The notes under the pieces: generated by a model
Seen by the model: only the letters and a program-made list of their open reading frames with translations
Told to the model about the DNA's origin: nothing
Database searches by the model: none
Part shown: positions 23,502 through 27,883 of the stretch, piece by piece
Numbering within the stretch: position 1 is the stretch's first letter
Layout of the letters: each line of letters starts with the position of its first letter
DNA from: Eubacteriales Family XIII. Incertae Sedis bacterium
Lineage (GTDB): Bacteria > Bacillota > Clostridia > Peptostreptococcales > Anaerovoracaceae
Reading direction: 5' to 3'
Length of the DNA: 64,000 bases
Assembly: GCA_031256875.1 (NCBI GenBank)
Contig: JAIRPQ010000065.1
Span: 2,264 to 66,263, forward strand
Program-made: the position numbers and the translations under genes

Positions 23502-24836
23502 TTATTTTCCGGCGGCTTCGTATTCGCGCTTGCCTGATGTGAACATTGCGAATATGAATACTACGATGTTTACGGCTACGTAGCAGATGGTGTACCTGTT
23601 TACGTATTCCATCGGCAGGCGCATGTCCTCTGTCAGAATGAACAGTATGACGAGACAGACCGTTCCTATCAGGCCGACTATCCACGAGGCGTTCTTGCGC
23701 CTTACGCGCCAGTCGTAGCGTTCGCTCTTGCCTGTGTAATAGCCAGGCTCGCGCATCTCCTGCTCACGGAGTTCGTTTTCGTAGCGTTCGCGGTCGCGCG
23801 ACCTCGTGTAGCGTATCACGAGCCACAGCATCTGTATGGCCGCGAGTATCGTCAGAAGCAGGTTGAACAGCGCCCATGCCCTGCCGCCGCTGCCTTCGTC
23901 TTGCTTCGGTGGCGGCGTCACATCGACTTCCACGTCGGGCGTAGGCGGGTTTGTCTGCGGCGTGTCCGTTTCGGGTATCTCGTCCACGGGCGTATCACCG
24001 ATGTCTACCAGAGAGTCGCCATCAGCCACACCTCCGTCGGCAGTCACGTCAGTTGCGCCTGACGTACCGCCGCTGCTGCCGCTGTCCGAATCGTCTTTCG
24101 GCTTGGTCTTTTCTTTTTCGAGCTTGTCTGTGATATTAGCGCCTGACGGGGGCTTCGGTGGTGTGGGCGGCGTGGGCGGCGTCGGCTTCGTGGGCGGCGT
24201 CGCGGGCTGATCCGTCGGCGGATTGTCCGGCGGCGGCGCGGTAGTTTCGTTGTACTGGAGCGCGATAAAGCGCCACTCTATGGCGCACAATGTATTCATA
24301 TAATCCGAGCCGAGCGATGTCGGAACGGAGAGGTCCACCGTGACTGTCCCGCTGTAGCCCGCCGAAACGGTGCCAAGCGAAACGCCTGTGCCCGTATACA
24401 TCTCCGCGGTGCCCGAGCCCGCAAGCCCGCGCAGGGTGCCACTGTATAGCGGCGTCGCGCCGTGGCGCACGTCTATCAATATCCGGTCGAGAAGCCCGTC
24501 ATCGGCCTGCTTGCCGCTGAAATAAGGTTCCAGATCCTTCGCGGCCTGACCCGTCACGGGGTTCGCCGCAAGGCGGAACAGCACGCTGTCGGGCGTATTG
24601 TTCCGAAGCAGGACGTTGACCGACCTCGCGTCGCCCGGGGACAGGTTCTTCATGGCGTCCCCGAAAGCGTCGTAGCCGTAGACGCGCACGTTCGCCGTGT
24701 CGTACTGCCACACGTCGGCCGCACCCTCGCCGTTGAAGTCGGCCGTGCCGTCGGCGAATACAGCCGCGGGCGCGGTGAGCAGCAATGCGAGGAACGTTAT
24801 GAGCGCGAGCGCTTTTTTCCGAATATTTTTTGCCAT
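23502..24836 (-). CDS. Surface protein: Sec signal peptide, TasA/camelysin-like beta domain, Pro/Thr-rich linker, three C-terminal TM helices
   Basis: 444 aa with signal LLLTAPAAVFA|DG. The domain ends ...SLGSDYMNTLCAIEWRFIALQ, the same x-F-x-A-x-Q ending as the two TasA-like paralogs. The linker is PPPDNPPTDQPATPPTKPTPPTPPTPPKPP plus an acidic stretch. TM helices are AWALFNLLLTILAAIQMLWLVI, WIVGLIGTVCLVILFILT and ICYVAVNIVVFIFAMF. Confidence 0.6.
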   Translation of the reverse strand: MAKNIRKKALALITFLALLLTAPAAVFADGTADFNGEGAADVWQYDTANVRVYGYDAFGDAMKNLSPGDARSVNVLLRNNTPDSVLFRLAANPVTGQAAKDLEPYFSGKQADDGLLDRILIDVRHGATPLYSGTLRGLAGSGTAEMYTGTGVSLGTVSAGYSGTVTVDLSVPTSLGSDYMNTLCAIEWRFIALQYNETTAPPPDNPPTDQPATPPTKPTPPTPPTPPKPPSGANITDKLEKEKTKPKDDSDSGSSGGTSGATDVTADGGVADGDSLVDIGDTPVDEIPETDTPQTNPPTPDVEVDVTPPPKQDEGSGGRAWALFNLLLTILAAIQMLWLVIRYTRSRDRERYENELREQEMREPGYYTGKSERYDWRVRRKNASWIVGLIGTVCLVILFILTEDMRLPMEYVNRYTICYVAVNIVVFIFAMFTSGKREYEAAGK

Positions 24837-24984
24837 TAATAATTTCTGCCGTTCGTTTTCTGCCGTTCATTGCCGTAACAGTAACGGCTTACTCCCAACA
24901 TTTTAGCCGAGGCGGGAAGGGTGGTGGGAACCGCCATTCCCGCCTTCGGCATTAAGCCCAATCAGGGTGTTAGTAAATCACTGC

Positions 24985-25803
24985 TCACCCAGGGAACGGT
25001 GATGGCGCAAACTCAGAAAATGCCTGCATCATGTCAGTAGTAGTACCGCCGCTTGATAAATCATTGTACGGATTACCGGTAGACTGTACTGCGTACGCAA
25101 TTATATCAACGCTAAACTCCACGCCCGCAAGGTCGTTTGGCAAATTCGGAAGTTTAATCGTAGTGAATACATCTGTTGTTGTATCGCCTGGGTCGAGTGC
25201 TCGCAAGTTAGAAGTTTCGCCGGTGCTATTAGTACCGCAATAGAAGAATCCACCATGAACCCCATCCTTGCTGAATACAGGACCTATTGGATTAGTTGTT
25301 GTATCCGGAGAGGTGTAACCTTTCCAATTTGCTCCTTGACCAAGATTAGTATAGAACTCACTAAATATATTATATAGTTCCTGTTGCCCTGCGGGAGTGC
25401 TGAAAAGATTATCGAAATCTACAGGAGTACCATCTTTTGTTGCAGTAATATTCACATCTACATACACATATACGGGCACGTCGCCAGTATTTTTTACACT
25501 TGGCTTCTTTGTGACGGACTCTCCTGGAGCTCTCTTACCATAGTCGATTCCGATAAACTTATCATTATTATCATAACTATATCCTACATCTTCATACGGC
25601 TTATTAGGATATGCCGTTCCAATTTCGAGAGATTCTTTATCCCCACCTGCTTCCAACAGTGAGATTTCTGCCGCGCCTATCGTCACAGTGTTCGTCGCTT
25701 TATCCGACTGCGCCGTGAACAGCATTAGGGTTCCTACTACCGCCAGTACCGCTACCATCGCTATCGCGAATACCAGTAGCATTGTCTTTTTCTTTGTAGC
25801 CAT
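24985..25803 (-). CDS. SipW-dependent TasA/BsaA-like matrix fibre protein
   Basis: 272 aa with a SipW-cognate type N-terminus: KKK + TM + LFTAQSDKATNTVTIG. It carries the VKNTGDVPVYVYV motif and the C-terminal FSVDIIAYAVQ. Confidence 0.7.
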   Translation of the reverse strand: MATKKKTMLLVFAIAMVAVLAVVGTLMLFTAQSDKATNTVTIGAAEISLLEAGGDKESLEIGTAYPNKPYEDVGYSYDNNDKFIGIDYGKRAPGESVTKKPSVKNTGDVPVYVYVDVNITATKDGTPVDFDNLFSTPAGQQELYNIFSEFYTNLGQGANWKGYTSPDTTTNPIGPVFSKDGVHGGFFYCGTNSTGETSNLRALDPGDTTTDVFTTIKLPNLPNDLAGVEFSVDIIAYAVQSTGNPYNDLSSGGTTTDMMQAFSEFAPSPFPG

Positions 25804-25917
25804 TTTTTTCTCCTTTTCTTTCTCGTCCCGCTTTTCGCGAGCGGGACATCCTTACCATTGATTGGGCGATAACTTACTATATATAACGCCGGCCGTTGGC
25901 TGGCGGTGGGTTTCGGC

Positions 25918-26361: not shown

Positions 26362-26384
26362 ATTCGGTTTTGCCGCTATGTTTT

Positions 26385-26951
26385 TCAAAACGCTGCTTCC
26401 CTTTCCGGCTCGATGATTTTCGGTGGCGCTAAAAATATCGGTATCACGAACAGCAGCACGAGGACGGCCAGCGCTATCAGCCCTACGGCTATGCCCTTCG
26501 TGGAGCGTATGCCCATCGCGAGCCCGCCCAGGTTCGGCACGTGCAGAGTGGCCGCGCCTATGAGCGTATCCCACGATGTCGCGCCGTCGGCTGTGGCGTT
26601 CGCGTCGCCCTTGGTCGTGAAGGTGTGCGCACTTTTGTCCACTTCGACCACGCGGTGCGTGACGGTCGTGCCGCCGCCCACGTCGAACGCGATGACATCC
26701 CCGACCTTGACTGCTTCGGCGCGGGCGTTCGTATCTATGAACACCAGCCCGTTCACGTTGTAGTTTGGCTCCATGCTGCCGCTGAGTATCGCCATCGGCT
26801 TGTAGCCCAGCGCCTGCGCCCCGAGGATGGCCCCGCACACGAGCACGACGGCGAGAAGTATCACGACGAAAAGCACGGTGCAAAGGCGCGAAACAACGCC
26901 GCGCGCGCCTGTTGGTTTTCGATATCTTTTTGTCCTGCCGACTTCAACCAT
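26385..26951 (-). CDS. sipW: Signal peptidase I, SipW (archaeal/ER) type
   Basis: 188 aa with an N-terminal TM helix, catalytic-region SGSMEP, a later GDAN motif, and a C-terminal TM helix. Confidence 0.88.
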   Translation of the reverse strand: MVEVGRTKRYRKPTGARGVVSRLCTVLFVVILLAVVLVCGAILGAQALGYKPMAILSGSMEPNYNVNGLVFIDTNARAEAVKVGDVIAFDVGGGTTVTHRVVEVDKSAHTFTTKGDANATADGATSWDTLIGAATLHVPNLGGLAMGIRSTKGIAVGLIALAVLVLLFVIPIFLAPPKIIEPEREAAF

Positions 26952-26995
26952 TTCGTGTCCTGTTCAGTCCCCCGTTGTGATAGCTTGCGGCTACG

Positions 26996-27883
26996 TTAAT
27001 AGATATTTTTTAACCCTGTGAACTGATTCTTGAAGAATGTGCGCCAGTAACTTTCGTTAGAGTTTTGGCCAACGGCATCGCTCACCCAGTCTGACTGAAT
27101 CATGTACGCCTTTATTTTCAAAGTCGCGCCATTTATTTCTTCTTCTGTCCATGTATTAGGGAATTTGATGTCATCTATTAAGAATGCCTCGGTTTTACCG
27201 TCATGCGATATTGGAACCAGACCGTTTTTGGAACTGACGTCATATCCGCTACCTTTCGCGTAGAAATATATCTTATGCCTTTCGCTTTCGCTTTGCACCG
27301 TGCAGCTGTCTGTCGTACGCCATGGCCCGTCGCCAGGATATGCCTGCGCACCATTTAGCGAATGAGCACCATTGAAGTTTATATTATCGAAGAAAGCTTC
27401 GGCTTTTGACTCCGCCTCAGAACCGGAATAGCTCTCACCCATAGAGAATATTAGCTCGATGGCAACATAGGCATCGGCACTACCTGTATTTTTCACATAG
27501 AGGTTTTTGATAATAGGTTGGTTAGGCGCGATGTTACCAAGCGCGACTTCGCCATCTTCCGTCATTGTATAAATATCTGAAGAGTCATCACCGCTTACAC
27601 CGAACTTATCCTCCTCCGCATTAAAATCATCGCCAATGTTCTCCGCCACCACCTCGTGCAGCTCGCCTTCTACGTTTCCTGCTGTCATCACGTTTTTGGC
27701 GGTGGGGGTTTCGTGCGTCAGCAGCATCAGCGTGCCGCCGCAGCCTACCGCTACCGCGAGCACCGCCGCCAGCGCAGCAAGGTATTTCTTGCTGTGCCTT
27801 AGCCCAAAGAAACTGTTACTCTTCGCGTACTTCCCACCAAACGATAAACACTTCTCCGAATGTTTTCCCAACATGGCAAACAC
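26996..27883 (-). CDS. SipW-dependent TasA/BsaA-like matrix fibre protein (paralog 2)
   Basis: 295 aa with N-terminus ...SKKYLAALAAVLAVAVGCGGTLMLLTHETPTAKNVMTAGN. It carries the YVKNTGSADAYVAIEL motif and the C-terminal LKIKAYMIQ. The start is ambiguous (GTG 27883 or ATG 27874). Confidence 0.7.
   Translation of the reverse strand: MFAMLGKHSEKCLSFGGKYAKSNSFFGLRHSKKYLAALAAVLAVAVGCGGTLMLLTHETPTAKNVMTAGNVEGELHEVVAENIGDDFNAEEDKFGVSGDDSSDIYTMTEDGEVALGNIAPNQPIIKNLYVKNTGSADAYVAIELIFSMGESYSGSEAESKAEAFFDNINFNGAHSLNGAQAYPGDGPWRTTDSCTVQSESERHKIYFYAKGSGYDVSSKNGLVPISHDGKTEAFLIDDIKFPNTWTEEEINGATLKIKAYMIQSDWVSDAVGQNSNESYWRTFFKNQFTGLKNIY

Follow-up and report, generated by a model that had tools for sequence, protein, structure and literature searches.

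A five-gene operon in a 64,000-nucleotide stretch of contig JAIRPQ010000065.1 from a Eubacteriales Family XIII bacterium (assembly GCA_031256875.1), called the window throughout, appears rather likely to encode a surface fibre of the TasA/BsaA superfamily that depends on a SipW-type signal peptidase and possesses a dedicated membrane-anchored base. A sequence-only reading of this DNA had described five co-directional genes, all of which were recovered where it had placed them, and had put forward the idea of an anchored, multi-subunit, SipW-dependent fibre. This idea gained support from family searches, from synteny in eight other loci and from the TasA fold matches of both protein models. Coordinates are positions in the window, and all five genes lie on the minus strand:

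26996-27883, minus strand: g1, 295 amino acids (aa), GTG start, with an alternative ATG at 27874
26385-26951, minus strand: g2 (sipW), 188 aa
25918-26388, minus strand: g3, 156 aa from TTG 26388, or 147 aa from ATG 26361
24985-25803, minus strand: g4, 272 aa
23502-24836, minus strand: g5, 444 aa

The strongest evidence on g5 is its gene context. An exhaustive representative search by phmmer with g5 residues 1-197, which comprise the signal and the N-terminal domain (N-domain), gave 184 clusters at E<=1e-3, and the relatives with LPXTG-type anchors reached E-values down to ~1e-34. Most relatives are 230-420 aa long, with an ordinary Sec signal, then the N-domain and a Pro-rich stalk, and at the end a sorting signal of the LPxTG or xPKTGD kind. 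Among 78 sampled relatives, 20 match NF033073 (LPXTG_double), 17 TIGR01167 (LPXTG_anchor) and 9 NF053819 (EF0750_LPXTG), and about 10 among the 150 clusters listed (of 184) carry a FILTED-type motif instead of a sorting signal. The N-domain gene stands last, after one to five TasA-like genes, in 9/9 loci with enough upstream DNA, namely the window, L081, L002, L003, L037, L083, L084, L086 and L087, where L-numbers denote related loci or contigs and L087 is the genome locus GCA_965352475.1. These nine loci span divergent lineages and two anchor types. A sipW gene was present wherever the contig reaches (window, L081, L003, L037, L084, L086 and L087). The next gene encodes a sortase in three LPXTG-type loci (L082, L083 and L087), and none was seen in L084 and L086. 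In L037, TPTTGD-anchored and FILTED-anchored paralogs of the N-domain protein adjoin one sipW cluster.

The fullest version of the system is held by L087, where the gene order is sipW, four TasA-like genes, a g3-like gene, a gene with a von Willebrand factor A (VWA) domain, a further TasA-like gene, the LPXTG-type N-domain gene and a sortase gene. The VWA protein (L087:4392-7397; 1001 aa) is BsaC-like, and this locus is a useful comparison set for assigning tip, shaft and base. The closest relatives of g5 are found in termite-gut metagenome-assembled genomes labelled Eubacteriales Family XIII and Coriobacteriales. In L003, which carries the latter label, the related locus looks degenerate or mis-assembled: in a 350-aa frame (L003:6789-7841), a TasA-like protein is fused, at its TAQSE…TN motif, directly behind the first half of SipW, and the g5 homolog (L003:7908-9194) is split by a frameshift. 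Since the other relatives are Clostridia, the Actinomycetota label of L003 points to a horizontal transfer or to an error in binning.

The g5 protein consists of four parts, for which the pLDDT (predicted local distance difference test) values given are those of the AlphaFold 2 (AF2) model:

24753-24836, minus strand: residues 1-28, ordinary Sec signal, not SipW-type, ending …APAAVFA with cleavage before DG; hydrophobic at 8-31
24246-24752, minus strand: residues 29-197, extracellular beta-sandwich N-domain with the terminal strand EWRFIALQ; pLDDT ~65-75
23883-24245, minus strand: residues 198-318, disordered stalk rich in Pro, Thr, Ser, Gly and Asp; pLDDT <50 across 195-321
23502-23882, minus strand: residues 319-444 and the stop codon, FILTED domain of three membrane helices; the motif LFILTEDMRLPME separates the second from the third

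The FILTED domain is the membrane anchor of g5. Residues 321-439 match NF052597 (FILTED) with 80.5 bits, above the cut-off of 40, and the three C-terminal transmembrane helices that the sequence-only reading had noticed are found both by hydropathy (319-344, 381-407 and 412-436) and in the AF2 model (317-362, 370-402 and 415-443). Arg and Lys are abundant in the C-terminus and in the loop that links helices 1 and 2, in keeping with both being cytoplasmic. The ordinary Sec signal was likewise upheld by the cleavage site between VFA and D, and the family consensus of the N-domain proteins has a signal ending in AxA before an Ala. The stalk contains a conserved DTPxxE[IL]P that is reminiscent of the opening half of 'doubled LPXTG' anchors, and D281, T282, P283, P288 and P293 are invariant in the g5 alignment. 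At the other end of the mature protein, an N-terminal extension with the consensus ADFNGxGAxxVWxYD (D33, F34, N35, G36, G38, V42, W43, Y45 and D46 invariant) covers about the first 20 mature residues and was modelled at pLDDT <50. No LPXTG hidden Markov model matched g5. A sortase dependence of this locus was considered and rejected, as neither a sortase motif nor an LPXTG-type tail was found in any open reading frame (ORF) of the 64-kb window.

The best fold matches of the g5 model in the PDB were the TasA fibre 8aur (E 3.9e-4, probability 1.0) and then the AbpA pilus 7ueg (E 7.6e-4), which is archaeal and TasA-like. When the N-domain was aligned to the subunits by hhalign the register was sensible, PGD…N facing PG…K…N-G and LGN-Y…W-F-A facing V-N…Y-A-V-Q. 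A terminal strand of the form F-x-A-x-Q had been thought common to g5 and the two subunits; the Gln and the alternating pattern are indeed shared, but the strict form is restricted to g5 (RFIALQ), as g4 has AYAVQ and g1 has AYMIQ. The N-domain of g5 is a candidate for the base or terminator subunit of a fibre.

The products of g1 and g4 are paralogs, as had been proposed. Comparison of g1 with the g4 family by hhalign gave a probability of 99.1% (E 9.7e-19) over 211 columns, and the g4-family profile found g1 by hmmsearch at 1.9e-26; g1 had no direct Pfam or NCBIfam match. The N-terminus of g1 has a long n-region and one hydrophobic segment (34-57) followed by the SipW-type motif GGTLMLLTHETPTAKNVMTAG, and that of g4 has a SipW-type signal and the donor region VVGTLMLFTAQSDKATNTVTIG. 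By eye, g1 and g3 share the G-T-L-M-L-(F/L)-T…(A/V)-x-N motif of g4. A set of 5.8 billion proteins contained 17 relatives of g4, nearly all of them metagenomic. Matches to PF12389 (Peptidase_M73) occur in 13/20 members of the g4 family (best E 3.3e-7; five re-scanned members clear the 22.5-bit cut-off), matches to TIGR04088, the SipW-dependent signal, at E<=0.01 in 16/20, and weak matches to TIGR04090, the BsaA family, in 10/20 of the g4 relatives. In favour of a fibre subunit, the partial match of g4 itself to the BsaA family falls within its body, and its match to the SipW signal comes near the threshold. The AF2 model of g4 (pLDDT 70.6) is a beta-sandwich whose N-terminal strand region is unmodelled (pLDDT <50), and its best PDB fold match, a weak one, was again the TasA fibre 8aur (E 8.8e-3, probability 0.47). 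Sequence searches of PDB chains with g1, g4 and g5 gave nothing relevant, nor did a PDB profile search that started from a PF12389-positive relative. The major shaft subunit is probably g4. A function as 'camelysin metalloprotease' was rejected; the name of PF12389 is likely a misidentification (PMC11580942) and nothing in the analysis favours a protease.

Within the g4/g1 family two residues never vary, E51 and N38, the latter part of the strand motif A-T-N-x-V, and 18/19 sequences have K99; g1 has N, E and K at the same columns. In BsaA of Clostridium perfringens, strand exchange is reportedly locked by an N35-K74 isopeptide bond that needs E56, and TasA is without such a triad (PMC11580942). 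On the strength of residue conservation, N38/E51/K99 could be a BsaA-like isopeptide lock, and we regard these residues as a lead.

The g2 product is a signal peptidase I of the SipW (archaeal/ER) type by its family match, as the sequence-only reading had it, and not the ortholog of the Bacillus enzyme: it scored 87.5 bits against TIGR02228 (cut-off 51.85) and 77.1 bits against the Bacillus SipW equivalog NF046067, under the cut-off of 190. It carries the catalytic Ser, His and Asp motifs as SGSMEP, THRV and KGDAN, which are also found in the SipW proteins of L037, L086 and L087, and hydropathy placed membrane segments at its N- and C-terminal parts (14-51 and 147-182).

The small gene g3 had been described as encoding 147 aa with a signal, a motif and a Pro/Thr-rich tail. 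This architecture was found as described, and a start at ATG 26361 is possible; the length, however, is better taken from TTG 26388, which is in frame. Because this TTG overlaps the stop codon of sipW and follows the ribosome-binding-site-like GGAAAGGGAAG by 7-10 nucleotides, g3 probably encodes 156 aa and is translationally coupled to sipW, and the longer form gains a Lys-containing n-region. A longer open frame (25918-26883) encloses the gene. The product shows a hydrophobic signal, the motif LLKSETPQVTNEMTG and a low-complexity tail of ~100 aa rich in Pro, Thr, Ala and Glu, with no folded domain. A strand pattern (A/V)-x-N-x-(V/M), located by eye and with a regular expression, is common to g1, g3 and g4. 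No significant Pfam or NCBIfam match was obtained with g3, none to TapA among them, and hhalign gave no match to the body of the subunit family. A homolog occupies the same position in L081, the closest related contig, where it has LLTDESPQVTNVMVG and a Pro-rich tail and overlaps sipW; L087:3649-4377 encodes a g3-like acidic low-complexity secreted protein. Judged by its motif, g3 is a candidate initiator or cap that supplies a donor strand only. Such a role would mirror the N-terminus of TapA, which is active as a strand alone: Bacillus subtilis forms proper biofilms when its TapA is cut down to a 1-57 construct, of which residues 44-57 alone are secreted (PMC10151520).

Under the reading that we prefer, SipW would cleave the signals of g1, g3 and g4 and free an N-terminal strand (…ATN.V/M.G), which would enter the open beta-sheet groove of a neighbouring subunit by donor-strand exchange. 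As has been suggested for BsaA, the conserved Glu could then catalyse an isopeptide bond between Asn and Lys that locks each joint. The shaft would be made of g4, and g1 would contribute a second subunit or an adaptor. As a strand without a body, g3 would fill an otherwise empty groove and serve as initiator or tip cap. As a body without a SipW-type strand, g5 would accept the last free strand, ending the fibre and tying it to the membrane, and the LPXTG/sortase versions of the N-domain would play the same role at the cell wall. We infer donor-strand exchange, its polarity, and the roles of g3 as nucleator and g5 as anchor. The most elaborate form of this reading, a complete, polar, covalently locked and sortase-free fibre with g3 as initiator or tip, g1/g4 locked by the N-E-K triad and g5 as a PapH-like terminator on a FILTED membrane platform, FILTED itself, in view of its fusion to class B sortases in pilus cassettes, possibly marking or organising sites of fibre assembly in Bacillota membranes instead of being a passive anchor, seems doubtful to us.

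Several observations weigh against the fibre with a membrane-anchored base. Neither g1 nor g4 matched PF12389 at E<=1, and g4 remained below the cut-offs of TIGR04090 (23.2 bits for a cut-off of 60, E 4.8e-5, residues 75-123 only) and TIGR04088 (17.2 bits for a cut-off of 19), so that in the proposal of two TasA/BsaA-like subunits the paralogy held and the thresholds for Peptidase_M73, BsaA and the SipW signal were missed. The PF12389 matches of the g4 relatives mostly correspond to profile positions 1-50, that is, to the signal and strand and not to the body. The fold matches of g4 and g5 have low TM-scores (0.24-0.42), and PDB profile searches with the g4 family and with the g5 N-domain family found no TasA chain. 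The AF2 model of g5 is of low confidence (pLDDT 50.6 overall). With a deeper profile, hhalign related the g5 N-domain to the subunit family at E ~7e-4 and a probability of ~25% (68.7% when forced to be global); a shallow alignment of seven sequences had given 1.4%. The likeness of N38/E51/K99 to N35/E56/K74 of BsaA is a candidate one, drawn from published positions. Finally, the N-terminal extension of g5, conserved and unmodelled, might act as a donor strand, and the proposed polarity would then be reversed. Since the curated thresholds were missed and the Pfam matches of the relatives lie mostly in the signal and donor-strand region, we conclude that g1 and g4 are remote relatives within the TasA/BsaA superfamily, outside the curated BsaA and Peptidase_M73 families. 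Homology in sequence between the g5 N-domain and the subunits is unproven, and a TasA fold for this domain, proposed from a low-confidence model and a weak profile-profile match, is soft.

The extension of g5 opens the way to an arrangement like that of TapA, in which g5 would be both anchor and nucleator: ADFNGxGAxxVWxYD would be donated to the first subunit, the fibre would grow outward with a free donor end, and g3 would be an alternative soluble nucleator for released fibres or would complement the g5 groove. The high conservation of these residues at a pLDDT below 50, as in the donor region of g4, speaks for it, as does the behaviour of TapA, which is cell-associated and offers TasA its N-terminus as donor (PMC10151520). 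The extension, however, is unlike the (A/V)-x-N-x-(V/M) motif of g1, g3 and g4 and follows an ordinary Sec site instead of a SipW-type one, and the BsaA model puts the free donor strand cell-proximal (PMC11580942); we consider reversed polarity unlikely. A different doubt concerns whether g5 belongs to the fibre at all. It could be an independent stalked surface protein, an adhesin or an Ig-like (immunoglobulin-like) display domain, that is merely co-transcribed with TasA-like matrix proteins that are secreted, and g3 could be a Pro/Thr-rich wall-spanning or matrix protein that donates no strand, or no real gene. The marginal sequence similarity between N-domain and subunits, the many unrelated giant surface proteins that carry FILTED, and the low-complexity tail and missing family match of g3 all speak for this. 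Yet the N-domain gene comes last after TasA-like genes in all nine informative loci, g5 has the TasA fibre and the AbpA pilus as its top two structural matches, the motif, position and sipW coupling of g3 are kept in L081, and AlphaFold 3 (AF3) predictions for related loci joined LPXTG anchors to AbpX subunits in donor-strand complexes (bioRxiv 10.64898/2026.01.04.697558). A g5 outside the fibre is quite improbable.

The remaining alternative bears on the nature of FILTED, which could be a sorting or processing signal, perhaps read by a sortase-related enzyme, by which g5 and the fibre would become covalently attached to the wall or to another acceptor. This is suggested by its swapping with LPXTG on a single N-domain family, by the strong conservation of its TED-x-x-LP motif and by its occurrence outside this operon. 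Of the 83 FILTED-bearing open frames fetched, 16 encode a class B sortase (SrtB) with a C-terminal FILTED fusion, found in the following loci:

SrtB-FILTED fusions: L034, L035, L042, L046-L048, L052, L055, L056, L060, L069, L070, L073-L076

The sortase part of one of them (L047:6858-8594) matches TIGR03064 with 185 bits (cut-off 153.75), and the fusions stand in a conserved pilus-like cassette, where a pilin-like protein of ~470 aa bearing a sorting signal of the ISPTG type is followed by an S26 signal peptidase I and this by SrtB-FILTED. Nevertheless, no conserved candidate for a processing enzyme was found beside the g5-type loci or in the window, and the three-helix domain of ~110 aa is far larger than known C-terminal sorting signals; a sorting function is highly improbable. 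Another 26 of the 83 frames are at least 1000 aa long. The wider occurrence of FILTED hints that it marks components of fibre assembly more generally; from the SrtB fusions and the long frames, FILTED is therefore taken to be a membrane module found alike in enzymes of fibre assembly, in giant surface proteins and in the base protein with its putative TasA fold. A literature search on 'FILTED' returned only misspellings of 'filtered' and no paper on the domain.

The operon is compact: 44 bp separate g1 from sipW, 114 bp lie between g3 and g4, and g4 and g5 are 148 bp apart. It probably ends at a terminator-like hairpin:

23368-23388, minus strand: terminator-like hairpin with T-run, ~115 bp past the g5 stop codon, 9 pairs of which 6 are G-C

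This hairpin is a consensus match only, and the regional count of such matches is not above the shuffled expectation. The flanking genes, read from their translations, are housekeeping genes, with those of prolyl-tRNA synthetase and IspDF upstream and of the Rnf complex downstream. The GC content is 52-54% in the fibre operon and 57-61% in the flanking housekeeping genes, a mild dip that is compatible with acquired DNA or with low-complexity coding. No tRNA gene was found by a tRNA scan of the whole 64-kb window, and an Rfam scan of the same sequence gave no matches. Divergent from g1, and separated from it by an AT-rich spacer of ~230 bp, lies a 58-aa ORF, MEKFKIPTIPRTTSKSIRFPDNIIEGVEQAIQDKDCTFTAFVVEAVRVALVNVSEGGE (28117-28293, plus strand), with a ribosome-binding-site-like AGGAA. 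Its only match is a weak CopG/ribbon-helix-helix-like one (PF12441, E 0.12), and it could be a small regulator of the fibre operon. With the end of the gene for prolyl-tRNA synthetase, this ORF shares a bidirectional hairpin (~28305-28330). Upstream of g1, the AT-rich region (27884-28116) contains the palindrome TTGCATTTTGCAA (~27930-27942), which may be an operator or a non-canonical promoter; a promoter scan flagged no consensus sigma-70 promoter in this region.

How TasA-type fibres start, stop and attach to the cell is unsettled, and the role of TapA is debated. For BsaA fibres an association with the membrane has been reported, with no anchor known, and LPXTG anchors exist so far as predictions only. 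A single domain family that is always last in sipW/TasA-like operons and switches between an LPXTG/sortase and a FILTED anchor, joined in this operon by a mini-protein that amounts to hardly more than a putative donor strand, provides a testable case. If our reading is true, the tip, shaft and base roles would be defined for a widespread class of Gram-positive fibres, and the FILTED domain would gain its first functional context. The proteins of the operon are small and suit multimer modelling and heterologous expression.

Among the characterized systems, tapA-sipW-tasA of B. subtilis (8aur; PMC9674648, PMC10151520) has a like order, with an accessory or subunit gene, sipW and a subunit gene, and also SipW-dependent signals. 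TasA is the best fold match for both the g4 and g5 models, but no PDB match to TasA or TapA was found at the sequence level. The g3 protein resembles the minimal active part of TapA, that is, the N-terminal strand only, and this likeness is functional and not one of homology; TapA itself includes a whole Ig domain and lacks a membrane anchor; the window operon has a separate membrane-anchored fifth protein. The sipW-bsaA-bsaB-bsaC operon of C. perfringens (PMC7395162, PMC11580942) likewise combines a SipW-type peptidase with several TasA-like paralogs, and the ATCC 13124-type locus has an LPXTG-bearing BsaB with an adjoining srtB (PMC7395162, PMC11580942). It has been speculated that this BsaB anchors BsaA, and for most C. 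perfringens strains a cell-anchored TasA-like base has been proposed; genes for LPXTG proteins, sortases and several paralogs are frequent companions of BsaA/TasA genes (PMC11580942). L087, a relative of the window locus, resembles the bsa loci in its VWA protein and sortase. The window operon, in contrast, is without a VWA (BsaC-like) gene, a two-component system, a sortase or LPXTG; its anchor is FILTED, one of its subunit genes precedes sipW, and it has the extra strand-only mini-protein. The same modular logic of a dedicated peptidase, several subunits and a surface anchor is seen in AbpX/AbpA-type loci of the TasA superfamily, which have genes for tip, minor subunits and anchor (PMC9245690; bioRxiv 10.64898/2026.01.04.697558), the bacterial AbpX-type ones having LPXTG or SLH (S-layer homology) anchors which, in AF3 predictions, connect to the fibre through strand complementation (bioRxiv 10.64898/2026.01.04.697558). 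These loci, however, belong to a different clade, their peptidase has ten membrane helices and their anchors are LPXTG, SLH or archaeal membrane proteins, not FILTED.

The LPXTG relatives of g5 (NF033073, and weakly NF053819, EF2685/EF0750) share with it the N-domain, the Sec signal, the Pro-rich stalk and the last position in the operon, but they end in LPxTG/xPKTGD and one helix, with a sortase in some loci, whereas g5 ends in FILTED. Terminator or anchor subunits are familiar from other fibres: in PapH of P pili and in basal pilins such as SpaB, the last subunit accepts but cannot donate, and so stops growth and fastens the fibre to the envelope. The logic proposed for g5 is the same in concept only, as there is no homology and the envelope and assembly machinery differ. 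As for the unusual composition that the sequence-only reading had claimed, the operon does differ from tapA-sipW-tasA and from the strain-13 sipW-bsaABC operon, but operons with several TasA-like paralogs and a cell-anchored last gene are common, in most cases by way of LPXTG and a sortase, and this general design has been described before (PMC11580942; bioRxiv 10.64898/2026.01.04.697558), with LPXTG or SLH anchors in such loci reported by preprints of 2025-26. What is new here is the FILTED membrane anchor that replaces LPXTG and sortase, and the strand-only mini-protein.

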